From Nitrospinota bacterium (GTDB taxonomy: Bacteria; Nitrospinota; Nitrospinia; CAJXCL01): a stretch of DNA of 43,285 bases. The stretch lies in NCBI GenBank assembly GCA_036011265.1, contig DASCNB010000281.1, positions 1 through 43,285 of the forward strand. Direction: 5' to 3'. Under the pieces are notes generated by a model. It was given only the letters and a program-made list of their open reading frames with translations, did not search any database and was not told where the DNA came from. Shown here piece after piece: positions 14,341 through 42,545 of the stretch (position 1 is its first letter; each line of letters starts with the position of its first letter). The position numbers and the translations under genes were made by a program.

Positions 14341-14412
14341 ATTACTTGGAAGATTAAAATATATAACCTGTTTTCATTTCCTCTAGAGCTTGATAGTAAT
14401 AATCGGATAAGA

Positions 14413-15312: not shown

Positions 15313-15329
15313 TTTTTCATTAGATTGTC

Positions 15330-16871: not shown

Positions 16872-17320
16872 TTAATTGTCTTTTACCAAAAAAATATTTA
16901 TAATTGTGATTTAAATATGCGCCTAAAAAAACCTCCGTGATAGTCAATAACCTCGAATTATTTATACACGTATAAAAACAAAAATACAATAACTGATGAA
17001 AAAATTAAGTTAAAGCTGTCCAATACATTTTCTTGTAATAAATTTTCCTGAGATTCAAGAATTTCAAGAAATTTGCGGTTATTTTCTGCTTAAAGAGGGT
17101 TATGGATTAGAATCTAAATGGTAAAAAAATAGTGTCTAATTCAAGATTTAAATAACTTATCAAAAGGTGTTCATGGATTATTGTTTCAGTATATTAATCA
17201 ACAAACGCAGAGAAACGCGCCATCACTTTTTCAAATGAACTCAGAGCTGCATTATTTTCAAAAAGAAAATTAAGGATTTAAAGCTTCAACAGTAAATAGA
17301 ACCTATACGTAAGGTAGTCA

Positions 17321-19501: not shown

Positions 19502-19508
19502 TTTTATA

Positions 19509-20489: not shown

Positions 20490-20540
20490 GCCCAACAGGG
20501 CTGTATATCTGCTGAAAAAATAAAAAATTTTCGGAAGTAT

Positions 20541-28114: not shown

Positions 28115-29352
28115 TTAATTAATGTTTTCCTATAAACAGAATAGTATTTTTCCACTACTGTTTCCCAGGAAAAATTATCTTCCACATATTTTTTTCCTTT
28201 TATGGCTATTTCTTTTCTCAGTTTTTCATCTCTAATAAGCATTTTAATTTTTTTGGCAAGGTCTTTAGGGTCCTTCTGATTAACCAACAATCCGGTCTCT
28301 TGATCAACAATGAAATCGATAATTCCTCCCACACGACTAGCAATAACAGCCGTATTTGAAGCCATCGCTTCAAAAAAAACAATTCCAAGACCTTCTGTAT
28401 CCCCACTATCCGTAACAATTGACGGTCCAATAAAAATATCCGATAGAGTAAAGTATTTTGCTAACTCGCAAGAAGTCATTTTGCCCGGAAAAATTACGGA
28501 AGACCCTACATTCAACTTTAGCACAAGGCCTTTTAACTCTTTTTCCAAAGGGCCAAAACCAATGACCAATAATTTTATTTCAGGATATTCATTCAAAACA
28601 AGCGGCATAGCTTCGATTAAGTATTTAAAGCCTTTTTTTTCCGCGAACCTACCCACTGCCAAAAGCATTGGGCCATTAATATTATAGATCTTTTTTATAT
28701 TTTGAGCTTGAGCTTTCAATTGTCCATTAAAAATATCTAAATCAACTCCCATTGGTATAATTTCTACTGGTGTCTCTCTATTTGCAATTTTGCACATAGC
28801 ATTTAGAGTCGCTCTGCTATTTGCAAGGCAGCATTTACCTTGAGAAATAGCAAACTTGCCAAACGGGATTAAAAAAGAATTGTTCAAAACAAAAAAAACG
28901 TCCCCAGCGTGGGCTGTTAATATCAATGGTATTTTAAAAATTTTGCTAAAAATCGCACAAAAAAATCCTTGCGGCACGATCCAGTGGCAATGGATCATCT
29001 CTATTTTTTTTTTTTTAATCATCCAACCAATATGGAAAAATTGAAATAGCAGAAAAAAAGGCAGCTCTATTCTCGCAAGCCAGCTACTTTTTAAATTTGG
29101 CAATGCCCCGCCATTGTAAAAAACTTTCTGCAATTTTTTAGGATAAAAGTATGAAAATCGATAGATCTTTAATCCTTCCATTTCTTCATAAGGTAACGCA
29201 TCAGGAGCACCTGGAACTAACACAACCATGTTAAATCCTTTTGAGGCTAATTTTTTTGATAAATTAAAAACAAATGCCGGCTCAGAATCATTTTCCCATC
29301 TGGGAAAAGTTGTAGCTAACACCAAAACGTTTGGCAATTTATTCTTTTTCAT
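28111..29352 (-). CDS. Glycosyltransferase family 4
   Basis: IHCHW, TAHAGD, IPMGVD, VGRFAEKKG, GDTEGLGIVFFEAMAS. Confidence 0.93.
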   Translation of the reverse strand: MKKNKLPNVLVLATTFPRWENDSEPAFVFNLSKKLASKGFNMVVLVPGAPDALPYEEMEGLKIYRFSYFYPKKLQKVFYNGGALPNLKSSWLARIELPFFLLFQFFHIGWMIKKKKIEMIHCHWIVPQGFFCAIFSKIFKIPLILTAHAGDVFFVLNNSFLIPFGKFAISQGKCCLANSRATLNAMCKIANRETPVEIIPMGVDLDIFNGQLKAQAQNIKKIYNINGPMLLAVGRFAEKKGFKYLIEAMPLVLNEYPEIKLLVIGFGPLEKELKGLVLKLNVGSSVIFPGKMTSCELAKYFTLSDIFIGPSIVTDSGDTEGLGIVFFEAMASNTAVIASRVGGIIDFIVDQETGLLVNQKDPKDLAKKIKMLIRDEKLRKEIAIKGKKYVEDNFSWETVVEKYYSVYRKTLIK

Positions 29353-30286
29353 TTGCCTCAGATTTTCTTATTCTATACAAACTGTTTTCAATATATTCTC
29401 TGTTAACAGAGATAAGGTCTGCAGCAAGTCCTATCAATATTATTTGAAATCCAACAATAATTAATATCGCCGATAATATAAGTGACTGGACATGGCCGGC
29501 AGTAGACTCAATGAAGAAGAAATATAAATAACGACATCCCAAAAGAAAACCTAAAAAGAAAGAAGTTCCACCTATATATGAAAACACTTTCAAGGGTTCG
29601 TACATAGCATAGATTCTAATGATAGTAACAATAGATTTTTTTATGTATCCCCATGTGCTTTTAAATAGCCTGGATTCTCTTAATTTCCCATTGGTTCTAA
29701 TTGCCACATGAGTTATAGGAATATCTTTTTTCCCAGCCATTATAATGGTTTCAAGGGTATAACTGAATTTAGAAACAATATTAATTTGCATGGCTGTCTC
29801 TTTGCTGTAAGCCCGAAATCCGCTTGTTACATCTGGGATATTTGTGCCGGACAGTTGCCTAACTACCCAACTCCCTAATTTTTGAAGAAATATCTTGGTT
29901 AAAGAGAAATGCTTTATTTTCTCAACTTCTCTGTCACCTATAACAATTTCTGATTTGTTTTCCAAAATGGGTTTGATTAACTTTGGAATATCATGACCAT
30001 TGTACTGGTTGTCCCCATCTGTATTAACAATAATATCGGCTCCTAGTTTTAGCGCAGTATCAAGTCCAATCATAAATGCATAAGCCAGTCCCCGGTTATA
30101 TGACAGTTTCACAATGTGATCGACCCCCAACTCTTCGGCAACTTCCAAGGTTTTATCGGTACTACCATCATCAACAACCAGTACCTCCACTTTATCTAGG
30201 CCATCAATTTTCTTTGGAATATCCCTTATAACTAAAGGAAGCGTCTTTTCTTCATTTAAACATGGTATTTGGACAATGAGTTTCAT
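29339..30286 (-). CDS. GT2 polyprenol-phosphate glycosyltransferase (DPM1/GtrB/ArnC-like) with two C-terminal TM helices
   Basis: IPCLNEE, VDDGSTD, TDGDNQY (DxD), DVTSGFRAY, C-terminal hydrophobic hairpin. Confidence 0.9.
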   Translation of the reverse strand: MKLIVQIPCLNEEKTLPLVIRDIPKKIDGLDKVEVLVVDDGSTDKTLEVAEELGVDHIVKLSYNRGLAYAFMIGLDTALKLGADIIVNTDGDNQYNGHDIPKLIKPILENKSEIVIGDREVEKIKHFSLTKIFLQKLGSWVVRQLSGTNIPDVTSGFRAYSKETAMQINIVSKFSYTLETIIMAGKKDIPITHVAIRTNGKLRESRLFKSTWGYIKKSIVTIIRIYAMYEPLKVFSYIGGTSFFLGFLLGCRYLYFFFIESTAGHVQSLILSAILIIVGFQIILIGLAADLISVNREYIENSLYRIRKSEANEKE

Positions 30287-30377
30287 AAGACTTGCACATT
30301 AACTGCAGAGATTTAATAAAATCAAAAACCTAATTAGCCCACAGAATAGCACAGAAATACAACGAGAAACCCTCTCG

Positions 30378-30395
30378 CCCAAGCTCCAGCTTGAG
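30378..30395. repeat. REP-like palindrome CAAGCT-CC-AGCTTG flanked by short CACAGA-type repeats
   Basis: Perfect 6-bp arms; nearby CCACAGAATAGCACAGAAA (about 30338-30357) and CTCTGTG (about 30414-30420). Confidence 0.4.
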
Positions 30396-30669
30396 GTCAA
30401 AGAAAAGACTTTACTCTGTGTTAATCCTCATTATTAGCAAATTCAGGTCTTCGCAGGCATTCTTCCATAGGTGAATCTGAGGCGCAAAATCCGTTTTCTA
30501 TTGATTTCATTAGGTTAAAAACTTTGCAAAAAAAACAAAGTTTTGTAAGTTAGTAGGATAGCTTACCAATCTAAAGTCTCTTCGCTATCATAAATATCTC
30601 TGTAAAAAATGTATCTTTTAAGGGACCATTCATATTTCCAATGATAACTATGGGAAAAATCTTTCTATA

Positions 30670-30705
30670 TGATAAAGTTTAACTAAAAAGGAATTAAAAT
30701 TCAAT
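30670..30705 (-). promoter_or_regulatory. Second copy of the pseI promoter element (TTGAAT-N17-TAAACT), pointing toward the GT2 operon
   Basis: 34/36 identity to 4702-4737 when reverse-complemented. Confidence 0.65.
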
Positions 30706-30852
30706 GGTTCATATAATGAGTACAAAATAATAATCTATTTGAAGATAAAGATTAATCAAGTTATAATGAATAAATATCGATGCCTAAAAATGCAGTTACT
30801 CTATGAGAACTGTTTTATTAACAAGAAAATTTTTTTTCATTAAACTTTCCAT

Positions 30853-30880
30853 TTGACTTTAAGTAAAACCAATATAATCT
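30853..30880 (+). promoter_or_regulatory. Possible sigma70 promoter for the radical SAM/TPP operon
   Basis: TTGACT at 30853, with TATAAT at 14-nt spacing or TAATCT at 16-nt spacing; spacing is imperfect. Confidence 0.35.
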
Positions 30881-30991
30881 ATGCCGTTTGTAGTCACAGA
30901 ATACCGTAGGCTCGTTTCAAATCATAAGAATTTCTATCCCATCATATTAATCTAATTTAAAATAAACTTGAGAGAAATGTAGGTGAAGTGA

Positions 30992-32062
30992 GTGGACAAC
31001 TATAGAATTGACGGTCATAAGCTGCTCTATCATATACCTCGTGTCAACGCCTGGCTAAATAAAGAAAATATTTATCCAATTTATATGGAAATTAGTCCAA
31101 CTGGGGCATGTAATCACAGGTGTACTTTTTGCGGACTTGACTTTATGAAATATCAACGCAGGTTCCTTGATACTGGTTTGCTTAAAGAGAGGCTATCGGA
31201 GATGGGTAGGCTTGGCCTAAAAGGTGTGATGTACTCCGGCGAAGGAGAACCTTTTTTACACAAAGAAATATCTGATTTAATCTTGCATACAAAGGAGTCT
31301 TCTATCGATGTAGCATTAACAACAAATGGTGTTTTGCTTAATGAATCGACTGCGGAAAAAATTCTTGGACATGTAGAATGGATTAAAGTAAGTATTAGCG
31401 CTGCAACGAAAGAGACTTATGCAAAGATTCACAAAACTGAGTCCGATGATTTTGACAAGGTGGTAAAAAACCTGTCGAACGCAGCGAATATAATAAAAGT
31501 GAAAGGTTATAAATGTGCTCTCGGTATGCAGATTTTACTTTTACCAGAGAATAGCCATGAGATCCTTCAGTTGGCAGAAATAGCGCGAGAGATAGGTATG
31601 AATTACCTGGTTGTAAAGCCTTATTCACAGCATCTGTTGAGTAAAACAAATCGGTATAAACAAATCAAATACAACGATTATTTATATATTGCAGATGAAT
31701 TGAAAAAGTTTAAAACCAATCATTTTTCAGTTATATTCAGGATAAATACCATGAAAAAATGGGATGAGAGCAAACGGAATTATGAACGCTGTTTTGCTTT
31801 ACCTTTCTGGTCATATATTGACTCCGGCGGCAATGTCTGGGGTTGCAGTGCATATCTCGGAGACAAAAAGTTTCTTTATGGGAATATTTATGAAAATTCT
31901 TTCAAGGAAATATGGGAGAGTGAAAAAAGGAAAAAGTCACTTCACTGGGTTGAAGAAGAGCTTGATGTTAGTAATTGCAGAATCAATTGCAGAATGGACG
32001 AAATTAATCGATACCTCTGGAAACTTACTTATGAGCCTCCTGAGCATGTAAATTTTATTTAA
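30992..32062 (+). CDS. Radical SAM enzyme with SPASM/twitch domain (paralog of 36063-37166)
   Basis: CNHRCTFC, SGEGEP, TTNG, CFALP...GNVWGC...GNI...W...CRINC; GTG start. Confidence 0.92.
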   Translation: MDNYRIDGHKLLYHIPRVNAWLNKENIYPIYMEISPTGACNHRCTFCGLDFMKYQRRFLDTGLLKERLSEMGRLGLKGVMYSGEGEPFLHKEISDLILHTKESSIDVALTTNGVLLNESTAEKILGHVEWIKVSISAATKETYAKIHKTESDDFDKVVKNLSNAANIIKVKGYKCALGMQILLLPENSHEILQLAEIAREIGMNYLVVKPYSQHLLSKTNRYKQIKYNDYLYIADELKKFKTNHFSVIFRINTMKKWDESKRNYERCFALPFWSYIDSGGNVWGCSAYLGDKKFLYGNIYENSFKEIWESEKRKKSLHWVEEELDVSNCRINCRMDEINRYLWKLTYEPPEHVNFI

Positions 32063-32073
32063 CAGGAAATTTT

Positions 32074-33009
32074 ATGGCAAAAATACTTATAGTAAAACTT
32101 GGTTATTCCGAAACCCTTGACCCGGAGATTAGCAGGACATCCAGTTTAGGAGATGTTTTACGGACAACTGTTCTCCTCCATAAATTTAAAGATGACCATG
32201 TTTCCTGGTTGGTTGATGAACATGCCTATCCTTTGCTTGAAGATAATCGGCTTATTCAAAGAATATTAATCTACGATCTAAATTCAGTATTGCAACTACA
32301 ACATGAACGTTTTGATACTGTTATTAATCTGGAAAAGGTGCCTGGAATTTGTGCTCTTTGTGATGGAATTGATGCATGGAGACGTTTTGGATTTAGGTTT
32401 GACTCCTCTAATGGAACGGCTCAGGCATATGACCACGCTGAACGCGCAATGTCTCTTTGCGATAATAAGGATTTAAAAAAAAATCATGAGCAGTATTGGC
32501 AAGAAGCTCTTTATCATATGATCGGTGCTGAGTGGGACAAAGAGGAATATATTCTCGGCTATAAGCCCAAATGTAGCGTTAAGCATGATATTGGATTCAA
32601 TTGGTCGGTCGGAAGCAAATGGCCAAATAAAGCATGGAAAAAAGAAAACTGGAAAAATTTGGAAAAAATTATTGGAAACAAATTTACTGTTTGTTATCAA
32701 AAGGGCATGAATGAGCTTCATGAATATATTGAATGGATAAATTCATGCCGTTTATTAGTTACAAATGATAGTTTGGGCCTTCATATAGCGTTTGCACTAA
32801 GGAAAAAAATTATTGTCCTATATGGCCCAACTTCTGTGAATGAGATTTATCTCTATGGCAGGGGAATTAGTCTTTTGCCGGAAGTCAATTATGATTGTAT
32901 TCCTTGTTTAGTTCCAACCTGTTCTCAGGAAAAAATCTGTATGGATTTTATTTCTCCTGAACGCGTTTTTGAGTCCCTTAACAAGATGCTAGGCACAACC
33001 GGACATTAG
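32074..33009 (+). CDS. Glycosyltransferase family 9 (heptosyltransferase-like)
   Basis: SSLGDVL, K.W, VTNDSLGLHIAFAL, LYGPT, C-terminal CIPC...C...CM. Confidence 0.88.
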   Translation: MAKILIVKLGYSETLDPEISRTSSLGDVLRTTVLLHKFKDDHVSWLVDEHAYPLLEDNRLIQRILIYDLNSVLQLQHERFDTVINLEKVPGICALCDGIDAWRRFGFRFDSSNGTAQAYDHAERAMSLCDNKDLKKNHEQYWQEALYHMIGAEWDKEEYILGYKPKCSVKHDIGFNWSVGSKWPNKAWKKENWKNLEKIIGNKFTVCYQKGMNELHEYIEWINSCRLLVTNDSLGLHIAFALRKKIIVLYGPTSVNEIYLYGRGISLLPEVNYDCIPCLVPTCSQEKICMDFISPERVFESLNKMLGTTGH

Positions 33010-33057
33010 TAATTGCTGATAATATTAATATTGTTAAATTAAAGAAACTTGGCGGCA

Positions 33058-33915
33058 ATGAAACCACTAATAATTCCAAAAAGCTATAACTATATTGCAG
33101 TTTTTTTAAGTCTTTCCTGTAACCTTAAATGCAGTTACTGCATTAACCATTATGGAGAATCAAAGCTTCCCAAAGGACATTTGTCGGGAAAGGATTGGGT
33201 AAGGGGGTTGAATAGAATTGAGTCAAGGGACGATTTGCCTATTACCCTTCAAGGCGGCGAACCGAGTTTGCATAAAGACTTTATGTATATTTTAAATTGT
33301 ATAAAAAGAAATTTAAACATAGATATTCTGACAAACCTACAATTTAATGAAAATAGTTTTATCCGGGATATTCATCCAGATAGAATTAAACGGAATGCGC
33401 CTTATGCTTCTATTCGTGTTAGTTATCACCCTGAAGTAATGGAGCTTGATCCATTATTAAAAAAGACGTTAAAACTGCATCGCAATGCTTATAGTATCGG
33501 CATTTGGGGATTGGACCATCCGAATAATAAGAAGCTAAATGAAGAAGCAAAGAGAAAGTGCTCTGAATTAGGAATTGATTTTCGCCTTAAAGAGTTTTTA
33601 GGTGAATTTAATGGTCGCCTATACGGAACATATTTCTATAAAGGATCAGTAGAAAATAGATCGAAACAAAATGTCTTATGTAAAACAAGTGAATTAATAA
33701 TAGGCCCGAATGGAATGATATACCGCTGCCACAGCGATTTGTATGAAGACAGAGAGTCAGTTGGAAATATTTTAGATCCTGAATTTGAAATCAAAGATAT
33801 TTATCGGAAGTGTAATTATTTTGGCCATTGCAATCCTTGCGATGTGAAGTTGAAGACAAATAGATTTCAAAAGTTTGGGCATACATCGGTTAAGATTGAA
33901 AACGTTAGCAAATAA
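33058..33915 (+). CDS. Radical SAM enzyme with short C-terminal Cys-rich (twitch-like) domain
   Basis: CNLKCSYC, LQGGEP, TN, SYHP, C...GMIYRC...GNI...C..C..CD; ATG at 33058 (ORF opens with TTG at 33049). Confidence 0.88.
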   Translation: MKPLIIPKSYNYIAVFLSLSCNLKCSYCINHYGESKLPKGHLSGKDWVRGLNRIESRDDLPITLQGGEPSLHKDFMYILNCIKRNLNIDILTNLQFNENSFIRDIHPDRIKRNAPYASIRVSYHPEVMELDPLLKKTLKLHRNAYSIGIWGLDHPNNKKLNEEAKRKCSELGIDFRLKEFLGEFNGRLYGTYFYKGSVENRSKQNVLCKTSELIIGPNGMIYRCHSDLYEDRESVGNILDPEFEIKDIYRKCNYFGHCNPCDVKLKTNRFQKFGHTSVKIENVSK

Positions 33916-33961
33916 GCCAAAATATATTCTATAAATCTTGTGAAACGCATAATCAAACATT

Positions 33962-34939
33962 ATGGATGAAATAGACTGGAATAAACAAAATCTTTTTTAT
34001 AGTAAAATGTTGCGAATCAGAATAATTGAAGAGAAATTGGCAAGTATTTATGCTGAGCAGGAAATGCGATGTCCTGTCCATTTTTGTATTGGGCAGGAAG
34101 CTGTTCCAGTTGGTGTGTGTCAGTCTCTAAATTCGACTGATACGGTATTAAGCAATCATCGCTCTCATGGCCATTATTTGGCAAAAGGGGGTTGCTTGAA
34201 GAAAATGATTGCAGAACTCTATGGTAAAGCTACAGGTTGCACATCTGGGAAAGGAGGCTCGATGCATCTTATTGACAACTCTGTGAACTTTCTTGGGGCG
34301 TCTTCTATTGTTGCAGGTACGATTCCTATTGCCGTAGGTGTAGGCTTTTTTAACAAATTAAGAAACTTAGAATCAATATCTGTAGTTTTTTTTGGAGATG
34401 GAGCTACTGAAGAAGGATTGTTTTACGAGAGTTTAAATTTCGCTGCATTGCATAATCTACCGGTACTGTTTGTTTGTGAAAATAATTTTTACTCTGTGTA
34501 TTCTCCTCTTTCAGTTCGCCAGCCAGCCAGACGTAAAATCTACAAGCTTGCGAAAGCGATGGGATTAGATTCTACCAAGGTTGATGGTAATAATGTTAAT
34601 TCGATTTACTTTGCATCACTTGATGCTTTAAATAGTATTCGCTGTGGAAAAGGACCTTATTTAATTGAAGCTGAAACATATCGCTGGCTTGAGCATTGTG
34701 GACCTAATTTTGATAACAATATAGGATATCGTACTGAAGAAGAATTTCTGGAATGGAAAAAGAGAGATTCTTTGAAAAACCTTGAGAATAAACTGCTAAA
34801 AGAATTAATTATTTCAGAGAGTCTGATTAAAACACTAAAAAATGAAATTACTGAGGAAGTTATGGATGCTATCGACTACGCTAAGTCTTCCCCCTTTCCA
34901 GAAGCAAAAGAACTGAATAAAACCGTTTATGCATGCTAA
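33962..34939 (+). CDS. TPP-dependent dehydrogenase E1 component, alpha subunit-like
   Basis: GQEA, HRSHGH, GKGGSMH, GDG...ENN TPP-binding motif, TYR...H. Confidence 0.92.
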   Translation: MDEIDWNKQNLFYSKMLRIRIIEEKLASIYAEQEMRCPVHFCIGQEAVPVGVCQSLNSTDTVLSNHRSHGHYLAKGGCLKKMIAELYGKATGCTSGKGGSMHLIDNSVNFLGASSIVAGTIPIAVGVGFFNKLRNLESISVVFFGDGATEEGLFYESLNFAALHNLPVLFVCENNFYSVYSPLSVRQPARRKIYKLAKAMGLDSTKVDGNNVNSIYFASLDALNSIRCGKGPYLIEAETYRWLEHCGPNFDNNIGYRTEEEFLEWKKRDSLKNLENKLLKELIISESLIKTLKNEITEEVMDAIDYAKSSPFPEAKELNKTVYAC

Positions 34940-36008
34940 AGCGAACGAAAATAAAAAAAGACAGATAACTTTTGCTGGTGCCATAAATGAAGCAATTGAA
35001 CAATCTATGAATAAGGACTCTAATGTATTTATTATGGGTTTAGGCGCTACTGACCCCAAAGGAGTTTTTGGAACAACTATTGGACTGGAAAAAAAATTTG
35101 GTTCCAATAGAGTATTGGACATGCCTACTTCAGAAAATGCAATGACTGGAGTTGCCATAGGGACAGCAATCAGGGGAATGCGTCCAATCATGGTTTACCA
35201 ACGGGCTGACTTCATGCTTATGTGTATGGATCAGATAATAAATAATGCTGCTAAGTGGTACTATATGTATGGTGGACAGAAAAGTGTTGCTCTTACACTT
35301 CGTTCGATTATAGGCAGGGGTTGGGGGCAGGGACCTCAACACTCCCAAAATTTTCAGTCCCTTTTTGCGCATATTCCCGGTTTAAAAGTGGTTGCTCCGA
35401 CTTTGCCTTATGAAGCAAAAGGTCTATTGATCAGCAGTATTGAAGACAATAATCCAGTTATTTTTATTGAACATAGATGGTTATTTAATCAAATAGGCAT
35501 TGTTCCGGAGGAATGGTATTCGCTTCCGCTTGGAAAAGCAAATATTATCCGTGAAGGTAAAGATATTACCATTGTGACTACTATGGACATGGTACTAGAG
35601 TCAATCCAGGTAGCAAAAAAACTCGAATCTCAGCATTTAAGCATAGAAATAATAAACCTTTGTTCTCTAAAACCCATTGATGAAGATACAATCCTTAAAT
35701 CAGTGGCTAAGACGGGAAGATTACTGATAATAGATTCCAGCTGGGTTGCCTTTGGTATTTCAGCGGAAGTTGCAGCTATCGTTTCTGAAAAGGGATATGA
35801 TTTGCTTAAATCAAAGATTAAACGATTGGGATTGCCTGATGCCCCTGCTCCAACCACTTGGGCTTTGAGCAAGTATTATTATACCAGTGAAGCAGATATC
35901 TGTAACGCAATTTGTGAAATGCTTGATCTTAATTTTAATTTGAAACATCTTGGTATTAACAATTTTGTTAAAGATGTTCCGGATGAATACTTTAAGGGGC
36001 CTTTTTAA
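34929..36008 (+). CDS. TPP-dependent dehydrogenase E1 component, beta subunit-like
   Basis: DMPTSEN, GMRP, DQIIN.AAK, QHSQ, PGLKVV.P, NPVIFIEH, EGKDITIV, KTGRL; overlaps the alpha gene by 11 bp. Confidence 0.92.
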   Translation: MHAKANENKKRQITFAGAINEAIEQSMNKDSNVFIMGLGATDPKGVFGTTIGLEKKFGSNRVLDMPTSENAMTGVAIGTAIRGMRPIMVYQRADFMLMCMDQIINNAAKWYYMYGGQKSVALTLRSIIGRGWGQGPQHSQNFQSLFAHIPGLKVVAPTLPYEAKGLLISSIEDNNPVIFIEHRWLFNQIGIVPEEWYSLPLGKANIIREGKDITIVTTMDMVLESIQVAKKLESQHLSIEIINLCSLKPIDEDTILKSVAKTGRLLIIDSSWVAFGISAEVAAIVSEKGYDLLKSKIKRLGLPDAPAPTTWALSKYYYTSEADICNAICEMLDLNFNLKHLGINNFVKDVPDEYFKGPF

Positions 36009-36062
36009 AAATTGAAATATTGAGATAAATATAAAATTCTAAATAGTAGTGAGTTAAAACAA

Positions 36063-37166
36063 ATGAGTGAGATTATTCTTGATGGTCACAAATTAGCTTT
36101 TCATAAAGAAAGAGTAGAGGCATGGATGCAAGGCGAGCGCATCGCCCCGATAACAATTGATTGTTCCCTTACAAGAGCTTGCACCTACAAGTGTATCTAT
36201 TGCTATAGCATGCTTCAAACAAATGATGTTAGAAAAATAACACGTGATGTTATTTTCAGGTTCTTGGATGACGCTGCTGAAATAGGGGTTAAGGCAATCA
36301 GTTTTGTGAGCGACGGAGAGAGCACTTGCAGTCCGCACCTTTATGACGCCATTTTACGGGGCAAGTCGAATGGCCTGGACATGGCATTGGGCACAAATGG
36401 TTTTTTGCTGAAGGACGACCGCCTTCAAGAAATACTACCTGCGCTTACATATCTTCGATTTAATATTTCTGCCGCGGAACCCCAGAGGTACTCGGAGATA
36501 ATGGGCTGTAAGCCAAAGCATTATGATAAAGTGATTAATACGGTAAGGGAAGCTGTCAGGATTAAGCGGGCAAATGATTTTGAAGTTACCTTGGGTCTTC
36601 AGATGGTTCTGCTTCCAGAATTTCATGATCAGATTATTCCTCTTGCAAAATTGGGGAAGGAGCTTTCTGTGGATTACCTGGTAATAAAACATTGCAGTGA
36701 TGATGAATCAGGAAGTCTTGGGGTTGACTATTCAAAATATCATAGCTTGGTGGAGGTTTTAAGAAAAGCAGAGAGTTTTTCGGATGAAAAATATCTGGTC
36801 AAAGCAAAATGGTCAAAGATTTTAAGTAATGGAAAACGTATTTATTCTAAATGCTATGGCCCTCCTTTTCTAATGCAATTTTCCGGTTCAGGATTAGTAG
36901 CCCCATGCGGTATGTTTTTCAATGATAAATACAAAAAATATCATATTGGTAATATTGCAGATTCATCATTCAAAGAAATCTGGAAGAGCGAACGTTATTG
37001 GGAAGTTGTAAACCTGATTGCTTCTGATGAATTTGATGCAAGGAAAATGTGTGGCTGTTTATGTGTACAACATAAAGTGAATGAATTTTTGTGGGATATT
37101 AAACAGAGTAAAGTTGATTTAAATGAATGTACAGGGGAGCTACCAATGCACGTTAATTTCATTTGA
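36063..37166 (+). CDS. Radical SAM enzyme with SPASM/twitch domain (paralog of 30992-32062)
   Basis: CTYKCIYC, SDGE, GTNG, CYGPP...GLVAPC...IGNI...W...CGCLC. Confidence 0.92.
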   Translation: MSEIILDGHKLAFHKERVEAWMQGERIAPITIDCSLTRACTYKCIYCYSMLQTNDVRKITRDVIFRFLDDAAEIGVKAISFVSDGESTCSPHLYDAILRGKSNGLDMALGTNGFLLKDDRLQEILPALTYLRFNISAAEPQRYSEIMGCKPKHYDKVINTVREAVRIKRANDFEVTLGLQMVLLPEFHDQIIPLAKLGKELSVDYLVIKHCSDDESGSLGVDYSKYHSLVEVLRKAESFSDEKYLVKAKWSKILSNGKRIYSKCYGPPFLMQFSGSGLVAPCGMFFNDKYKKYHIGNIADSSFKEIWKSERYWEVVNLIASDEFDARKMCGCLCVQHKVNEFLWDIKQSKVDLNECTGELPMHVNFI

Positions 37167-37320
37167 AAATTATAGTTTAATTTTATTCCTGTACCAATAA
37201 CTCAAACTAGTAAAACGCGACATATCCTCTCCGTAAAGAATGTTATTTAATCAAATAAGTATTGAGTCGATAATATCTGGAAAACAATAAATTCGGATGT
37301 AAAATTAAAAAAATCGCCCT

Positions 37321-38085
37321 ATGAATGAAGAAATAAAAATATCAGTTGTAATGCCAGCGCTTGATGAAGAAAAGAATATTCATGCTGCCATTACAAATAC
37401 TTTAAAGGCTTTTGATGATTACAGTATTAGTGGTGAAATTATTGTAATCAACGATGGGAGCAACGACAAAACTGAAGCCATTGTAAAAGAAAAAAAAAAA
37501 AATGATTATCGGATTAGATTAATCAGACACACAAACCCTCAAGGGATAGGTTCGTCATTTTGGGACGGAGTTGACATTGCACTGGGAGATGCGGTTTGCA
37601 TGCTCCCCGGAGACAATGAAAACGAACCATTGGAAATTTTCCGATATTTTAGGCTGCTCGAGCATGTAGACATTATTATTCCTTTTATGTTTAATAAGCA
37701 GGTGCGATCACTTTTTAGAAATGCGCTTTCCTTTTTTTATCGTTTTGTTATTAATACAACTTTTTTAGTAAATCTCAATTATACAAATGGCACAATTCTT
37801 TATCGTAGATCTATTCTTAAGGACCAACCTCACAGAAGCAAGGGATTTTTTTTTCAAACAGATATTCTAATAAGACTAATTAAGAAAGGTTATCTTTTTG
37901 CCGAGGTCCCTTATAAGCTCAGGACAAGAAAAGAAGGAATCTCTAAAGCAGTTACTTTTCCATCGTTACTAAATGTAATAAAAGGCTACCTTCGCTTAGT
38001 GAAAGACTACTACTTTAATAGAAATGAAATGACTAATGGGCCCTATTCTGATGATGCCTTGACAACTCTAAGGCATAAAGAATAA
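37321..38085 (+). CDS. Glycosyltransferase family 2 (DPM1-like, soluble)
   Basis: SVVMPALDEE, INDGSND, PGDNE, EVP...R..G.SK. Confidence 0.88.
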   Translation: MNEEIKISVVMPALDEEKNIHAAITNTLKAFDDYSISGEIIVINDGSNDKTEAIVKEKKKNDYRIRLIRHTNPQGIGSSFWDGVDIALGDAVCMLPGDNENEPLEIFRYFRLLEHVDIIIPFMFNKQVRSLFRNALSFFYRFVINTTFLVNLNYTNGTILYRRSILKDQPHRSKGFFFQTDILIRLIKKGYLFAEVPYKLRTRKEGISKAVTFPSLLNVIKGYLRLVKDYYFNRNEMTNGPYSDDALTTLRHKE

Positions 38086-38138
38086 TAGCCTTATATGATA
38101 TTTTGAAATAGTCCGATTAAGAAAAAAAAATATAGATT

Positions 38139-38663
38139 ATGAGAGTATTGGAAATTGGATTATTTTTGTTCTTCCTGGCCTTCTTATTACATTTGATCAT
38201 ATGGAAAGTTAGAATGCCAAAAAGACAAACAAAAACAATTCTACAAATTTTTTTCGGAGTTTTAATATCTGGTATTATTTTTTTATATATTAAGCAGCCA
38301 GCTCTTTTAAAGGGTGACTTTTTTTCATTTGAAAGTTTTATAGAATATTTTCATATTTCCATTTTCTTTACATCTCTCACTTTAGGATACATTATTACAT
38401 ATTCTGCTTTGGAGGCTGACAGCCCATCCCTCGTTATGATAATGCTTATTTTAGACGCAGGACCTAGCGGACTGGATATTGGGGCTTTCACGCAACGTTT
38501 AAACGATGATTTGCTGGTAAAACCGAGAATAGAGGATCTGCTTAGAGATAAATTAGTTTGCATGGATGGCGAAAAATACTTACTTACCCCAAAAGGCAAT
38601 TCTTTTGTCACTATAATTACGTTTTATAGAAAACTTATTAATCTGCCCTTAAAAGGAGGCTGA
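38139..38663 (+). CDS. Hypothetical membrane protein: 3 TM helices plus C-terminal winged-helix-like domain
   Basis: Three hydrophobic segments, then SPSLVMIMLI...RIEDL...LV...YLLTPKG resembling a wHTH wing. Confidence 0.6.
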   Translation: MRVLEIGLFLFFLAFLLHLIIWKVRMPKRQTKTILQIFFGVLISGIIFLYIKQPALLKGDFFSFESFIEYFHISIFFTSLTLGYIITYSALEADSPSLVMIMLILDAGPSGLDIGAFTQRLNDDLLVKPRIEDLLRDKLVCMDGEKYLLTPKGNSFVTIITFYRKLINLPLKGG

Positions 38664-38669
38664 TCCATA

Positions 38670-39197
38670 TTGATCCTTAATTATTTGCAGCCTCTAAATC
38701 CACTCGCAGGTCTATTAATAAACATATTTGTGCAAGTAATTTCTTATAGAATGCTTTTAAGTTCTTTTCTCTTAAAATCTGTCTATACAGGGTTTGCAGC
38801 AGGATTTATCTTTGTAACATTATATGAATATTATGTTTTTTTTACTATTGCAACACCAATAAAACAATTTTTGTCAGTCCTTATAGTTAATTTATTAACA
38901 TACACTTCATTGGGCTATTGCTTTTTCCATTTTATAAATTTAGGGGTAACTGCTCGACGTGTTAGGATACTAATTGAATTGGATGAATCTAAAAAAGGTC
39001 TTTCAATGAAGGAAATTCTTAGCAGATATAATGCGAAGTGTGTTGTTGAAATGAGAATTAGAAGGCTAATGAGCAGTGGTCAGGTTACATACAATAATGG
39101 TAGATACTATATAGGCAGTCCTATACTGTTATTAATGGCGAAAATTATAATAACAATGAAATTAATAATTCTTGGAAAAAAAAGCGAATTTGACTGA
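38670..39197 (+). CDS. Hypothetical membrane protein: 3 TM helices plus C-terminal winged-helix-like domain
   Basis: Same architecture as the neighbouring gene: RVRILIEL...GLS..EI...RIRRL...GQV...GRYY; TTG start. Confidence 0.6.
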   Translation: MILNYLQPLNPLAGLLINIFVQVISYRMLLSSFLLKSVYTGFAAGFIFVTLYEYYVFFTIATPIKQFLSVLIVNLLTYTSLGYCFFHFINLGVTARRVRILIELDESKKGLSMKEILSRYNAKCVVEMRIRRLMSSGQVTYNNGRYYIGSPILLLMAKIIITMKLIILGKKSEFD

Positions 39198-39224
39198 AAT
39201 TTATTAAAAAACCTTTAGATCAAA

Positions 39225-40787
39225 ATGATATTAATTAATTCTTCTTCAAAAGATGCACTAAAAATATTTCAACCATTTCTTCCTATTTATGTACCCGTTG
39301 GCATTGGGTTTCTCCTTGCAGTTGCGGAGCGTGAGAATATTCACGCAAGACATATAGATCAACAAATTGAAAAAAATTTTTTTGGCTTAATTGCAGAGCA
39401 TGTTAAAAAAATGAAAAAACCGTACATCTTTGGATTTAGCGTGATGACTGCAGCCTATAAGAGCAGCATAATTGTTTCAAAAAAATTAAAAAAACTCTAT
39501 CCAGATTCTATTATCTGCTTTGGCGGTATCCACCCATCCGCAATTCCAGAAGAGGTTTTAATCAATAAGCACATAGATGCTGTAATTAGAGGAGAAGGAG
39601 AGCTAATATTGCCTGAATTTTATAGGCGAGTCAAAGAAGGAAATAATTTTGACGATCTTAATAATATTTCATTCCGAAAGGATGGAATAGTTATTCATAA
39701 CCAAAGAGAAATTGCTAACAAGAGCCTGGATAGTTTGCCTCCGTTCCCTTATCATCTCTTTACATCTCCAAAATATGATTTAGGATTTGTAGTAAGTTCT
39801 CGAGGTTGTCCATACAAATGTATTTTCTGCAGTAATATTATTGCAACAGGAAAGAGTTATAAGTGTAGATCTGAAAGTATTATAGTAGACGAACTTGATC
39901 TTTTATACCATAAATACGGAAAAAAGTTTGTTCTTTTTCTAGATGATAACTTTCTTGTTAGCAAAGAAAGGATATACAACTTAATCGATAAAATAAAGCA
40001 AAGAGGGTTACACAAGAAAATGACTTTTAGCTTTCAGGCTAGAGGGGATACTGCTGATTATAAACTTTTTAAAGATTTGTATAATTGTGGTTTTAGAAGT
40101 GTTTTTTTTGGAATGGAAACAGCCTCCAATCGTATTATGAAAATTATTAAAAAAGGCGAAACCGTAGAACAATGCGTTTCTGGAGTGCAGACGGCAAAAC
40201 AGGTAGGTTTTCATGTGAGCGCCGCATTTATCTATGGTTTTCCTGGTGAAACCCATAAAGATAGAATGGATTGCGTTGAAATAAGTAAGAATCTGGAATT
40301 AAACATGGTTAGATTCAACAATGCTACTCCCTATCCTGGGACCAAACTGTATGATATAGCCAAGAAAGAAGGGCGCTTGAATATACAGGGTTTATATGAA
40401 AACTTTTTTTCTGTTTCGACCTTTATTGAAAATCCATTCAAAAAAATACCTTTTTCCTATGTTCCTATTGGCAGTACTGAAAGAGAGATCAGAAACGATA
40501 TTCTTTTAAGTTATCTTTCTTTTTATACCGATATAAAAAAAATTAAAAGAATATTTTCAAATCCTAATGAGGGGGTAGGCTGGTTTAATGCGGGTGAAAA
40601 GTTTTTAGAAATGTTAAAAAAACTTCCTGCATTGATGCTTTTAGCAGCGCTGCTGTCCGTAAAATTTATGCAGCTGATTATTGATGTATTTGTGAAAAAG
40701 AACACTCATATTTCTTATGCTGAATTCATGCAAATTATAACATTTGGACAACATATTAAAAAAAACTCTTCTTTAAATTTGAGGTAA
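39225..40787 (+). CDS. Cobalamin-binding radical SAM enzyme (class B methyltransferase-like)
   Basis: PVGIG, GFSVMT, GGIHPS, RGEGE, SSRGCPYKCIFC, DDNF, GMETAS, GFPGET, PYPGT. Confidence 0.93.
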   Translation: MILINSSSKDALKIFQPFLPIYVPVGIGFLLAVAERENIHARHIDQQIEKNFFGLIAEHVKKMKKPYIFGFSVMTAAYKSSIIVSKKLKKLYPDSIICFGGIHPSAIPEEVLINKHIDAVIRGEGELILPEFYRRVKEGNNFDDLNNISFRKDGIVIHNQREIANKSLDSLPPFPYHLFTSPKYDLGFVVSSRGCPYKCIFCSNIIATGKSYKCRSESIIVDELDLLYHKYGKKFVLFLDDNFLVSKERIYNLIDKIKQRGLHKKMTFSFQARGDTADYKLFKDLYNCGFRSVFFGMETASNRIMKIIKKGETVEQCVSGVQTAKQVGFHVSAAFIYGFPGETHKDRMDCVEISKNLELNMVRFNNATPYPGTKLYDIAKKEGRLNIQGLYENFFSVSTFIENPFKKIPFSYVPIGSTEREIRNDILLSYLSFYTDIKKIKRIFSNPNEGVGWFNAGEKFLEMLKKLPALMLLAALLSVKFMQLIIDVFVKKNTHISYAEFMQIITFGQHIKKNSSLNLR

Positions 40788-40835: not shown

Positions 40836-42545
40836 TTACTTGGTTACAGTCGAAAGCTTCTGAGTGAAATCCTTACTTCCCATATATCTATAAATTACAA
40901 CATTCCTATCCGATTGAGGGGTTTTGAATTGATGAATTTGTATTTCAAAAACATTATTTCCATATCGTGCCGGATAATCCAGTACAATTTTTTGATAGTT
41001 ATTTTTTTTTATATAATCGAAAATATAGTCTCTATAAAAATCTTCTTTCTTTTTAATTTCTATTCTAGTTTCAATAGTTTTTTTCAGAACTGACCCGAAC
41101 GGAGAACTTTTTCTTAAAATTATCCAATCCGGACTTTCTGGAAAAGGAATTTCATAAATTCGCCTGAAGTTAGTATGAAACGCAAATGATGCAAATTCAT
41201 GGTTCATCAAAAAAGTATCATCTTTGCCCCCATGCTTTTTGACATATTCTACTATTCCATTCAAAGGACCTCGGTACTGATGAGTAATTTCGTATAAATA
41301 TTTTAAAAATACAGATTTTAATTCTATTTGCCATTTAAAAGTTGAAATTGGTCCTCTGAAATACTCTGTTTTCTTTAGGGACTCTGTGACTTTATTTCCA
41401 GAAAGATAATCAATCCCTTTAAAAGCAAAAAGAGGACCGACATGAACAACATTGGAAAAAATTAAAAATCCTAAAACAATTATAATTAGCCAGGATTTTT
41501 GTTTTGATATTAACCGGGAAATAATACGTGCCGTAAAAATATAAAAAAGGGGCAGAATGCCTGCGATATAATGTTGTTGAGGCGTATAGTGTAGCGTAGA
41601 AACCCCGATGGTTGAAAAAATCAGAATTGTTATTAATACAAGTTCTTTATGTTTTAGCAGATACTCCTTCTTGAAAAAATCCTTTGAAGCAAAAAACAAA
41701 AATACTAAAGGAAATATATAATTGTTAATTTGAAATAAAAATGAAAAAAAACGTTTTGTTAAAGATAGTATATCATTCTTGTGCGGTATGCCAGTAACAG
41801 CTACCCAATAGTGTTTGCTTATTCTTTCGAAAGCTGGATACGTGTATAGTATCCAGGGAGCTGTCATAAAAAATATTATCAAAAATGGGATAAAAAATTG
41901 CTTTACTCGAGCTTTGTTTCTCTCATAAACAAGCAGATGTAAAATTATTCCCGCTAAAACTCCTGAGCAGAAAATATGCATAGAATGAAAGAGCATGGCT
42001 GAGGATATGATAAAACCTACAGCGCTCCACTTTTTATGCTCGAGCATTTGAAAATAAAACCATATTATTAACAATGTAAATGGGATTTCAAAAGATATGT
42101 ATCGAGCTGTTCTAAAATATAATAAAAGAGGAACAGAACAAATAAAGAGCAAAGTTGCAATGGCAGCTTCTTCTTTGTTTCTGTTAATTTTCAAAGTTAA
42201 GAAGTACAAGAGAGGCACAGATAAAACAGCGAGCAAGGCTGAAGGAAAACGAGCTGCAAAGGAATTTTGACCGAAAATATATAACGATAAAGCTCTTACA
42301 TAATAGGGAAACCAGGGTTGTATTTTCTGTCTCCCATCCATAGCCATTAGATAGTCTACTTCATTTATGCCATCGCTATTAGCAGGATACCCAAATTTTA
42401 GAGTTGTAAGGCTGTAAAAGGAAGCTACCCCTTCATCAACTCCCAAAGCGTTCTCACCAAGTCTCGGGAAAACTAAAAAAGCACTTAAAATAATCAAAAA
42501 GTACAATGTTTTATGGGTGTATATTTGTTGTATTAGTTTGTTCAT
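40836..42545 (-). CDS. ArnT/PMT-like GT-C glycosyltransferase (lipid-linked donor)
   Basis: LGVDE acidic motif in the first loop, FAARFPSAL, RTARY, multiple TM helices, periplasmic C-terminal domain. Confidence 0.82.
   Translation of the reverse strand: MNKLIQQIYTHKTLYFLIILSAFLVFPRLGENALGVDEGVASFYSLTTLKFGYPANSDGINEVDYLMAMDGRQKIQPWFPYYVRALSLYIFGQNSFAARFPSALLAVLSVPLLYFLTLKINRNKEEAAIATLLFICSVPLLLYFRTARYISFEIPFTLLIIWFYFQMLEHKKWSAVGFIISSAMLFHSMHIFCSGVLAGIILHLLVYERNKARVKQFFIPFLIIFFMTAPWILYTYPAFERISKHYWVAVTGIPHKNDILSLTKRFFSFLFQINNYIFPLVFLFFASKDFFKKEYLLKHKELVLITILIFSTIGVSTLHYTPQQHYIAGILPLFYIFTARIISRLISKQKSWLIIIVLGFLIFSNVVHVGPLFAFKGIDYLSGNKVTESLKKTEYFRGPISTFKWQIELKSVFLKYLYEITHQYRGPLNGIVEYVKKHGGKDDTFLMNHEFASFAFHTNFRRIYEIPFPESPDWIILRKSSPFGSVLKKTIETRIEIKKKEDFYRDYIFDYIKKNNYQKIVLDYPARYGNNVFEIQIHQFKTPQSDRNVVIYRYMGSKDFTQKLSTVTK

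Follow-up and report, generated by a model that had tools for sequence, protein, structure and literature searches.

Radical SAM enzymes, a stand-alone E1 pair and glycosyltransferases in one operon of a Nitrospinota bacterium: candidate genes for a C-branched cell-envelope sugar

The 43,285-nucleotide contig DASCNB010000281.1 of a Nitrospinota bacterium (assembly GCA_036011265.1; this whole stretch is referred to as the window) carries at positions 30992-40787 ten co-oriented genes for radical S-adenosylmethionine (SAM) proteins, the two subunits of a thiamine diphosphate-dependent E1 enzyme, glycosyltransferases of the families GT9 and GT2, and two small membrane proteins. Together with a convergent gene for a membrane glycosyltransferase of the GT-C type, they may constitute a cell-envelope glycan-tailoring operon in which a C-branched sugar would be built by the E1 pair and the radical SAM enzymes and exported on polyprenyl phosphate; we consider the chances of this reading to be about even. 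In the window 38 open reading frames (ORFs) were called and their domains assigned with Pfam and NCBIfam; the ten ORFs of the operon, all on the plus strand and with exactly these boundaries, agree with the gene row reported in a first-pass annotation of the DNA, and eight of them are syntenic in a second locus (L001, see below). The gaps between consecutive genes amount to 11, 39, 46, -11, 54, 154, 53, 6 and 27 bases, the negative value marking the overlap of the E1 alpha and E1 beta ORFs. The operon and the convergent gene comprise:

30992..32062, plus strand: rSAM1, radical SAM protein with a predicted twitch-type (single auxiliary cluster) C-terminal domain (Pfam Radical_SAM 73.7 bits, SPASM 33.5 bits)
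32074..33009, plus strand: GT9-family glycosyltransferase, heptosyltransferase-like (PF01075 51.4 bits, cut-off 22)
33049..33915, plus strand: rSAM2, short divergent radical SAM protein (PF04055 33.1 bits, a weak match; cut-off 29.5)
33962..34939, plus strand: E1 alpha, thiamine diphosphate-binding subunit of an E2-less family (E1_dh 221.7 bits)
34929..36008, plus strand: E1 beta with a family-specific C-terminal tail (Transket_pyr and Transketolase_C, 110.8 and 108.6 bits)
36063..37166, plus strand: rSAM3, predicted twitch-type radical SAM protein of a highly conserved unnamed family (Pfam Radical_SAM and SPASM)
37321..38085, plus strand: GT2 without membrane helices, apparently of the polyprenyl-phosphate sugar synthase type (PF00535, Glycos_transf_2, 72.4 bits)
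38139..38663, plus strand: TM1, small membrane protein with a soluble C-terminal domain (no Pfam family above cut-off)
38670..39197, plus strand: TM2, small membrane protein (no Pfam family above cut-off)
39225..40787, plus strand: B12-rSAM, cobalamin-type radical SAM protein (B12-binding PF02310 47.9 bits, Radical_SAM PF04055 78.2 bits)
40836..42545, minus strand: GT-C type (PMT_2) membrane glycosyltransferase, convergent with the operon and beyond the end of the ten genes initially annotated (PMT_2 40.5 bits, PMT 26.3 bits)

As judged from its sequence, the E1 pair is not a housekeeping pyruvate dehydrogenase (PDH) or acetoin enzyme and no member of a dehydrogenase complex, because both subunits score below the curated cut-offs, E2 and E3 genes are missing nearby, and the pair is separated from such enzymes in the phylogenetic tree. 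The thiamine-binding and catalytic motifs are preserved throughout the family (GDG...NN, the beta-subunit glutamate, and histidine in both subunits), which also possesses signature positions of its own. In NCBIfam, E1 alpha reached 312.1 against a cut-off of 393.85 (TIGR03182) and 199.5 against 411.35 (TIGR03181), E1 beta 306.4 against 321 (NF006667) and 278.4 against 454 (NF008854); transketolase and DXS models also matched the pair weakly. The top PDB sequences were human PDH E1 alpha for the alpha subunit (E 4.4e-52) and the PDH E1 beta entries 3duf/1w85 for the beta subunit (E 3.9e-67). No lipoyl, 2-oxoacid_dh (E2) or E3 domain was found by Pfam in the 38 window ORFs, and 11 reference-locus queries for E2, E3 and lipoyl proteins (tblastn, E≤1e-3) gave no match in the window, so that the absence of these partners from the gene row, noted at first pass, holds for the whole window; nor did the same queries match within 10 kb of the E1 pair in 83 related loci (L001-L081, L092, L093). 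As positive controls, 9-10 of 10 control loci were recovered with the E2 and lipoyl queries, and the four loci with annotated lpdA with those for E3.

For the phylogeny that the first-pass annotation had called for, nine plasmid-borne pairs annotated as PDH, acetoin, branched-chain keto acid dehydrogenase or similar served as references, eight of which have adjoining E2 or lipoyl genes; the window proteins are 26-41% (alpha) and 28-44% (beta) identical to them. In the concatenated alpha and beta tree, 75 family rows were split from all nine references with SH-aLRT (approximate likelihood ratio) support of 100 (LG+G4) and 99 (LG+C20 PMSF), which sets the window pair apart from housekeeping PDH and acetoin E1 enzymes. 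Both trees were quick searches, and eight truncated rows (L007, L034, L036, L039, L042, L066, L068, L091) were left out of the LG+G4 tree. The window and L001 are sisters with support 100, and the pairs of L092 (Streptomyces griseofuscus) and L093 (Solidesulfovibrio magneticus) branch between the references and the core clade in the LG+C20 PMSF tree. The tail of E1 beta (residues 333-359), which ends in D-V-P-D-x-x-F-x-G-P-F, is kept in 69-74 of the 75 family rows and missing from the nine references; in PDH E1 beta, the C-terminal domain binds E2.

The setting of the E1 family is formed by nucleotide-sugar genes in most loci, in agreement with the sugar context assumed at first pass. The family was sampled by a search for two conserved motifs in a one-genome-per-species collection; from at least 599 matching stretches the best 80 were retained with flanks of up to 10 kb, homologs were located by tblastn and same-strand ORF clustering, and the neighbour counts given here refer to homologs that passed set thresholds within 10 kb of the E1 pair. 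The 80 loci comprise 77 bacteria and three archaea from 24 named phyla, the family being present in Nanoarchaeota, Woesearchaeota and the candidate phylum Gottesmanbacteria; E1 alpha of the window is 49-67% identical to them and has thousands of relatives, 55-69% identical among the matches listed. E1 beta adjoins E1 alpha in 78 of the 80 loci, the remaining two ending at contig edges. By far the most frequent neighbour is an NAD epimerase/dehydratase gene (65/80, often directly beside the pair), followed by genes for SAM methyltransferases (46/80), HldE-like kinase/nucleotidyltransferases with swapped domain order and scores under the equivalog cut-off (41/80), GmhA-like isomerases (27/80), DegT (20/80), short-chain dehydrogenases (SDR; 20/80), UDP-sugar dehydrogenases (14/80), YerE-like enzymes of the acetolactate-synthase type (12/80) and split transketolases (9-11/80). 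Radical SAM homologs of the window, of any kind, occur in 18 loci, and those of the B12 type in 11.

The gene directly downstream of E1 beta, which was inspected in 68 loci, in no case encodes an E2 domain; it belongs to the Epimerase/GDP_Man_Dehyd type in 18 loci, to DegT in eight and to another aminotransferase in one, to short-chain dehydrogenases in eight, to Methyltransf_13/23 (C-methyltransferase-like) in six and to other SAM methyltransferases in four, to B12 radical SAM proteins and zinc alcohol dehydrogenases in three each, to NUDIX and GT2 in two each and to others in three, no family being recognized in ten. Most of the longer proteins related to E1 alpha are fusions of alpha with beta; in one contig each, E1 alpha is fused to a B12-binding radical SAM protein (P0244, the B12 part of which is just 20% identical to B12-rSAM of the window), an RmlD/epimerase-type SDR (P0330) and a GHMP kinase (P0354). 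Association of B12-type radical SAM proteins with the E1 family is seen in 11 of 80 loci and in one fusion protein. Two plasmids of cultured organisms illustrate the context: that of Azospirillum oryzae KACC 14407 has the order epimerase-SDR-PfkB-SIS-SDR-E1a-E1b-DegT-DegT-hypothetical-radical SAM-NUDIX with glycosyltransferases further on, its radical SAM protein being 58% identical to rSAM3, and pDMC1 of Solidesulfovibrio magneticus RS-1 (L093) has GT2-GT2-radical SAM-NUDIX-kinase-E1a-E1b-reductase-DegT-epimerase-nucleotidyltransferase-hypothetical-GT-C. As a separate observation, aldolase/acetaldehyde-dehydrogenase pairs of the DmpG/DmpF kind are encoded near the E1 pair in L051 and L075; they recall ErwI/ErwJ, which are described as suppliers of the long keto-acid donor for erwiniose (PMC9306805).

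A precedent for sugar branching by such pairs, on which the first-pass annotation had relied, is indeed published: in actinomycete antibiotic pathways, E1 alpha/beta enzymes are established to add a pyruvate-derived acetyl (C2) branch to keto-sugars, the basis being knockout and feeding experiments on aldgamycin and the in vitro activity of KbDH-alpha/beta (PMC12247030). The same account gives the number of such clusters as about 120, knows of C2 branches only, located at C3 or C4, describes the characterised stand-alone enzymes as C2-branch specialists that use pyruvate and ketone acceptors, and reports later reduction, methylation, oxidation or transamination of the branch (PMC12247030); AviB1/AviB2 and Pau11/Pau12 are proposed branching cases (PMC4753412). 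The window shares with these systems a two-subunit thiamine E1 without E2 or E3 among sugar-tailoring and glycosyltransferase genes, and the reductase, methyltransferase, DegT and B12-rSAM neighbours of the E1 family match the tailoring reported for the actinomycete branches. In contrast, the actinomycete enzymes belong to secondary-metabolite clusters of Actinomycetota, whereas the present pair is encoded in a cell-envelope glycan island and its family extends over 24 named phyla including Archaea, with heptose-type activation genes and radical SAM genes as neighbours; the likeness is one of description and gene context. E1-type sugar branching as such is therefore known already from actinomycete antibiotics (PMC12247030), and the envelope and radical SAM setting is the variation presented here.

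With regard to lipopolysaccharide (LPS) sugars, the passages on branching in PMC9306805 and PMC12247030 name only the single-chain YerE/ErwE type. The outcome proposed for the window would be the same as in yersiniose and erwiniose formation, namely an acyl-branched keto-sugar nucleotide for a surface glycan that is subsequently reduced (PMC9306805, PMC4753412), but YerE and ErwE are single-chain PF02775/PF02776 proteins in contrast to the two-subunit E1. Since 12 of the 80 loci hold both, the two types are not simply interchangeable. In a literature search in which subscription journals were mostly not covered, no paper was found in which an E1 pair belongs to a surface-glycan cluster with heptose-type or radical SAM genes.

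The ten-gene arrangement exceeds chance because eight of its genes recur in the same order in L001, a metagenome-assembled genome of the Alphaproteobacteria with a guanine plus cytosine (GC) content of 0.37. There the order is rSAM1, E1a, E1b, SDR, rSAM3, GT2, TM1, TM2, B12-rSAM and PMT_2 gene, with protein identities to the window of 47-72% (rSAM1 67%, E1a 67%, E1b 72%, rSAM3 63%, GT2 62%, TM1 47%, TM2 50%, B12-rSAM 69%); upstream of the set lie GmhA-like, HldE-like and cytidylyltransferase-like genes, another B12-rSAM gene and an ABC exporter. The gene set is nevertheless conserved in part only, and the full set is not widespread. Homologs of rSAM1 were found in two of the 80 loci (L001, 67%; L047, 64%), in both immediately before E1 alpha, besides a partial copy in L032; GT9 homologs in two, 5' of the E1 genes (L032, 45%, directly upstream; L020, 39%, with one epimerase gene between); an rSAM2 homolog in one (L020, 38%); and the trio GT2-TM1-TM2 in two (L001, L023). 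The rSAM3 gene has a GT2 gene as its neighbour not only in the window but also in L001, L047 and L048. The conservation check thus went against the expectation of the first-pass annotation: rSAM3 is present in 8/80 loci, GT9 in 2/80 and the TM pair in 2/80, and L001 alone approaches the full set.

Among the radical SAM proteins, rSAM1 and rSAM3 are paralogs and appear from sequence to be of the twitch type: they are 30% identical over the full length (E 4e-60), and both contain the CX3CX2C motif at residues 40-47. Seven cysteines are invariant among 25 aligned sequences of the rSAM1 and rSAM3 kinds, namely the three of CX3CX2C and exactly four C-terminal ones (264, 282, 330 and 334 in rSAM3 numbering), a pattern that points to a twitch domain with one auxiliary cluster, not to a full SPASM domain. 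The twitch domain of BtrN is described as a truncated SPASM domain in which four cysteines hold one auxiliary cluster (PMC9012708). A joint rSAM1/rSAM3 profile matched DesII (2.4e-10) and BtrN (2.5e-9) ahead of MoaA and PqqE in the PDB, the BtrN match (39.8 bits) having its best stretch at BtrN residues 162-238, i.e. in the auxiliary-cluster region; with single sequences BtrN was not recovered from the PDB, and searches with rSAM3, rSAM2 and GT9 gave weak generic matches only. The common features with BtrN, which acts on an aminocyclitol, and DesII, which acts on a TDP-sugar, are the CX3CX2C core and the four cysteines of BtrN for one auxiliary cluster; rSAM1 and rSAM3 differ by being remote in sequence, about 100 residues longer than BtrN and equipped with conserved N- and C-terminal motifs of their own. 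The comparison with BtrN made at first pass is consequently tenable for rSAM1 and rSAM3 as regards the four C-terminal cysteines and the best solved relatives, whereas radical oxidation as the source of the keto acceptor is merely one option, because NAD epimerases/dehydratases, a type that makes keto-sugars, are encoded near E1 in 65 of 80 loci.

For rSAM3, 6148 relatives were counted at E≤1e-10, the 120 matches listed being 73-79% identical; the named records among them come from Nanoarchaeia, Brocadia, Omnitrophota, Nitrospirae, Planctomycetes and the candidate phylum Magasanikbacteria. As an observation in its own right, all these listed relatives (P0122-P0241) are labelled just 'radical SAM protein', the conservation being unusually strong for an unnamed enzyme. 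In rSAM2, CX3CX2C is located at residues 24-31 and further cysteines at 255, 261 and 264. B12-rSAM belongs to none of the curated methylase families: it scored below the cut-off for all 25 NCBIfam models listed, the best being HpnJ (158.9 against 577.6). Its solved relatives in the PDB include 9ccb (1.2e-16), OxsB (9.4e-10), TokK (3.2e-8) and also AprD4, and in common with the class B cobalamin radical SAM methyltransferases it has its B12-binding domain at the N-terminus, ahead of the radical SAM domain. GenK and Fom3 are cobalamin-dependent radical SAM methyltransferases, and OxsB and AprD4-like enzymes are members of the cobalamin radical SAM class that are not methylases. Because the class includes such non-methylases, B12-rSAM is treated here as a candidate methylase.

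At the delivery end, GT2, TM1, TM2 and the convergent GT-C gene look like a polyprenyl-phosphate delivery module. The top seven distinct PDB sequences for GT2 are ArnC (3), GtrB (3) and the dolichol-phosphate mannose synthase DPMS (1) at E 2.9e-10 to 2.6e-7 (ArnC 2.9e-10, GtrB sll0501 1e-8, Pyrococcus furiosus DPMS 2.6e-7), all of its NCBIfam matches being far under the cut-offs, and no hydrophobic segment or membrane helix was found in it. Judged by these relatives, GT2 looks like a synthase of polyprenyl-phosphate sugars and not like the direct installer of the sugar supposed in the first-pass annotation, and it would feed the GT-C enzyme encoded beyond the ten genes. The latter protein has at least eight hydrophobic segments and no match among the PDB sequences; a PMT_2 gene likewise closes the cluster in L001, and a GT-C gene that in pDMC1 of S. 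magneticus (L093). The GT-C enzyme of the window is likely to be the final transferase. GT9 matches PF01075 only in the C-terminal part of the profile (positions 173-246); its best NCBIfam model is heptosyltransferase II (44.9 against a cut-off of 134.6), and its PDB matches are 3tov (5.9e-6) and WaaF (7.3e-5).

TM1 and TM2 both have N-terminal hydrophobic helices (two or three in TM1) and match no described family. The first-pass description of the two as membrane proteins with a winged helix-turn-helix (HTH) domain stands in its first half; the domain label is tentative, the indications being a sub-threshold HemN_C match (E 0.0047), Atlas structure matches to HTH regulators with TM-scores ≤0.35, and reading by eye. 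The Atlas clusters of TM1 are named 'hypothetical protein', and TM1 homologs follow GT2 in L001 (47%) and L023 (33%); TM2 has 1258 representative relatives at E≤1e-3. A sequence comparison detected no similarity between TM1 and TM2, and the idea that they are paralogs was rejected on this ground. In L023, the TM2 homolog (16821-17774) is fused to GtrA_DPMS_TM (PF04138, E 1e-16), and GT2-TM1-TM2 follows the row E1a-E1b-SDR-methyltransferase-YerE-like, rSAM1 and rSAM3 being absent there; it may be recorded separately that this locus carries both an E1 pair and a YerE-like thiamine enzyme.

In extracytoplasmic glycosylation by three components, a GT-C enzyme is described as working together with a flippase and a synthase of lipid-phosphate sugars (PMC11127046). 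As in the GtrB/GtrA/GtrC and ArnC/ArnEF/ArnT systems, a GT2 that looks like the polyprenyl-phosphate type is encoded in the window near a GT-C enzyme with small membrane proteins between them; in contrast to these systems, Pfam found no GtrA, SMR or MATE flippase family in the window, and TM1/TM2 are linked to GtrA by the one fusion in L023. A helix-free GT2 with two putative small membrane partners also resembles in layout the eukaryotic DPM1/DPM2/DPM3 with PMT.

Starting from the observed gene content, family relations and gene contexts, we infer the sugar, the chemical steps and their order, and what TM1 and TM2 do, as follows. The substrate would be an activated, probably heptose-like sugar, since the usual neighbours of the E1 family and the GT9 gene point in this direction. 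The E1 pair, acting alone as a thiamine diphosphate carboligase, would decarboxylate pyruvate and transfer the C2 (acetyl) unit onto a carbonyl carbon of this sugar, with a C-branched sugar as the result; rSAM1 and rSAM3 might catalyse its oxygen-independent oxidation, epimerisation or deoxygenation before or after branching, and B12-rSAM might methylate an unactivated carbon. GT2, which TM1 and TM2 would anchor to the membrane, would load the finished sugar onto polyprenyl phosphate, and after flipping, the PMT_2 GT-C enzyme would pass it to an acceptor outside the cytoplasmic membrane, and GT9 might transfer a heptose-like sugar in a further, cytoplasmic reaction. The gene evidence shows neither that the product is new, as suggested at first pass, nor that it is branched at all; altogether, the observation made in the first-pass annotation is confirmed and its interpretation partly supported.

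Several points weigh against this proposal. The operon contains, according to Pfam, neither an SDR-type gene for keto-sugar formation nor a gene for sugar activation among its ten genes; two genes of the NAD epimerase/dehydratase type lie outside it in the window (2616-3545, 14413-15312). The function given to the E1 clade is drawn from sequence and gene context, and its likeness to AviB, AlmD, KbDH and Pau11/12 is one of description and gene context (AlmDI/DII is a further example of a stand-alone sugar-branching E1). The matches of the twitch-type proteins to DesII and BtrN are weak (39-43 bits). The coupling between E1 and rSAM3 may be loose, because rSAM3 homologs occur in only 8 of 80 E1 loci, which are scattered across the E1 tree, and belong to a very large family. 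TM2 was seen fused to GtrA once only; among its relatives, the 150 listed have 101-218 residues and are too short for such a fusion. In the 12 loci with a YerE-like enzyme, a known brancher of LPS sugars (PMC9306805), the E1 pair may do something else. Finally, the E1 pair of L092 (Streptomyces griseofuscus pSGRIFU1, 13974-16020; E1 alpha 51.6% identical to that of the window over 253 residues) lies among genes for polyketide synthases (PKS) and nonribosomal peptide synthetases (NRPS), adjoining a condensation-domain protein, acyl carrier proteins (ACPs) and ketosynthases, and the 28.8 kb examined contain no sugar genes; this is possibly a different use of the same enzyme type.

Among the other functions that the E1 pair could have, that of an ordinary E1 of a pyruvate, acetoin or branched-chain 2-oxoacid dehydrogenase with E2 and E3 encoded elsewhere in the genome is extremely improbable: PDH E1 proteins provide the best PDB matches and the best NCBIfam models, and the search for E2 and E3 covered the window and not the rest of its genome, but both subunits lie under the curated cut-offs, the split from the nine references has support of 100 and 99, no E2 or E3 gene occurs within 10 kb in 84 sequences (the window, L001-L081, L092 and L093), the family is present in the archaeal and candidate-phylum lineages mentioned above, and the conserved extra tail of E1 beta is not seen in the references. 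Very unlikely, too, is the delivery of an activated C2 or acyl unit to a non-sugar acceptor (carrier protein, lipid or peptide), as performed by E1-like enzymes in some PKS/NRPS pathways and suggested by the surroundings of the S. griseofuscus pair and by RenH, a fused alpha-beta homolog in the renieramycin cluster; neither of these belongs to the core clade of the window pair, the neighbours of this clade are sugar-nucleotide genes, and Pfam found no ACP, condensation or ketosynthase gene in the window. A somewhat more serious, though still unlikely, alternative is that the pair forms a carbon-carbon bond without creating a branch, by chain extension at an aldehyde or by remodelling of the skeleton in the manner of transketolase or DXS, before or after nucleotide activation, which would yield a linear higher-carbon or deoxy-keto sugar. 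The E1 fold is common to transketolase and DXS, which both match weakly in NCBIfam; GmhA-like isomerases and HldE-like kinase/nucleotidyltransferases, the commonest neighbours, act on sugar phosphates; split transketolase genes are found close by in 9-11 of 80 loci; and in the 12 of 80 loci that hold a YerE-like enzyme, this may already cover branching (PMC9306805). The characterised stand-alone E1 enzymes, however, are described as taking pyruvate and ketones and as specialists for C2 branches (PMC12247030), and the frequent neighbours of the GDP_Man_Dehyd type fit a keto-sugar acceptor.

A different objection concerns the unity of the operon, which may consist of independent modules for different glycans, i.e. 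the E1 pair, the group of rSAM3, GT2, TM1, TM2 and B12-rSAM with the GT-C enzyme, and GT9 with rSAM2, so that no single pathway would exist; we regard this, too, as doubtful, to about the same degree as chain extension. It would account for the low counts in the E1 loci (rSAM3 in 8/80, GT9 and the TM pair in 2/80 each), the scattering of the rSAM3-bearing loci over the E1 tree and the 6148 unnamed relatives of rSAM3 (E≤1e-10), as well as for the position of rSAM3 beside GT2 in the window and in L001, L047 and L048, for GT2-TM1-TM2 without rSAM1 or rSAM3 in L023 and for the overall character of the 43-kb window as a mosaic of glycan genes. Against it stand the eight-gene order common to the window and L001 at 47-72% identity, the position of rSAM1 directly 5' of E1 alpha in L001 and L047, the tight gaps including the overlap of E1a and E1b, the fusion of a B12-rSAM protein to E1 alpha in P0244 and the B12-rSAM genes in 11 of 80 loci.

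As regards the surroundings of the operon, a presumed promoter region of 705 gene-free bases (30287..30991, no strand) separates it from a divergent GT2 gene (29339-30286, minus strand, from the ORF list). Between 30200 and 41000, promoter-like sites (50 against 42.3 +/- 6.4 in shuffled sequences) and terminator-like sites (4 against 6.6 +/- 3.1) were found without excess; Rfam identified no family in the window and no match at E≤1 in 30287-30991, no tRNA was found in the window, and a Shine-Dalgarno-like motif precedes few operon genes only. The GC content is 0.37-0.39 for the E1 and rSAM3 genes (33962-37166) versus 0.30-0.33 for the TM1, TM2 and B12 genes (38139-40787).

The whole window is a glycan island (GC 0.34) with genes for NeuB, cytidylyltransferases, a carbamoyltransferase, epimerases, a flippase-like protein, GT4, GT2 and radical SAM proteins. 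The latter number eight in 43 kb (starts at 8638, 22815, 27080, 30992, 33049, 36063, 39225 and 42663), two of the B12 type, five of the SPASM/twitch type and one short, a density that suggests heavily radical-based, oxygen-independent tailoring of glycans. A look-alike of a nonulosonic-acid-type module consists of a NeuB-type synthase (4782-5834), two cytidylyltransferases of the CMP-sugar type (12-791 and 13678-14340) and a carbamoyltransferase (797-2497), and a gene at 24945-26954 (minus strand), flanked by genes for LPG_synthase_TM and a SPASM radical SAM protein, encodes a protein of 669 residues that matches no Pfam family and has nine or more hydrophobic segments. In the region 17321-21524, a 726-residue fusion of a pyruvate-kinase barrel with PUA_2 and ATP sulfurylase is followed by a 342-residue ORF without family and a sulfotransferase-like gene; the three genes resemble a module for sulfate activation and glycan sulfation, the fusion itself being unusual. 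The suggestion of the first-pass annotation that this pyruvate kinase supplies pyruvate to the operon was rejected as not credible in view of its fusion partners, the sulfotransferase-like gene two genes downstream and a minus-strand block that lies between it and the operon.

A considerably wider reading would be that the E1 clade, the twitch-type rSAM3/rSAM1 and the cobalamin radical SAM enzymes jointly make, in many lineages and independently of oxygen, a higher sugar of probable heptose origin that has a quaternary carbon, a C-acyl branch and C-methylation; this sugar would partly be tailored and exported on polyprenyl phosphate, with TM1/TM2 as a new anchor/flippase pair handing over to the GT-C enzyme; in this generality we think it improbable. 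If it were true, E1 branching would reach beyond actinomycete antibiotics to the cell envelopes of many phyla of Bacteria and Archaea, small-genome lineages among them. Should the reading proposed for the operon hold, C-branching of the E1 type would be common in cell-surface glycans beyond a few antibiotic pathways, the family having given at least 599 matches in the species collection. Undiscovered branched sugars would then be predicted on the surfaces of many uncultured lineages, and the known thiamine enzymes with tertiary alcohols as products, a group that interests biocatalysis (PMC12247030), would gain new members. Moreover, function could for the first time be approached in a radical SAM family whose thousands of members are unnamed, and in two small-membrane-protein families.

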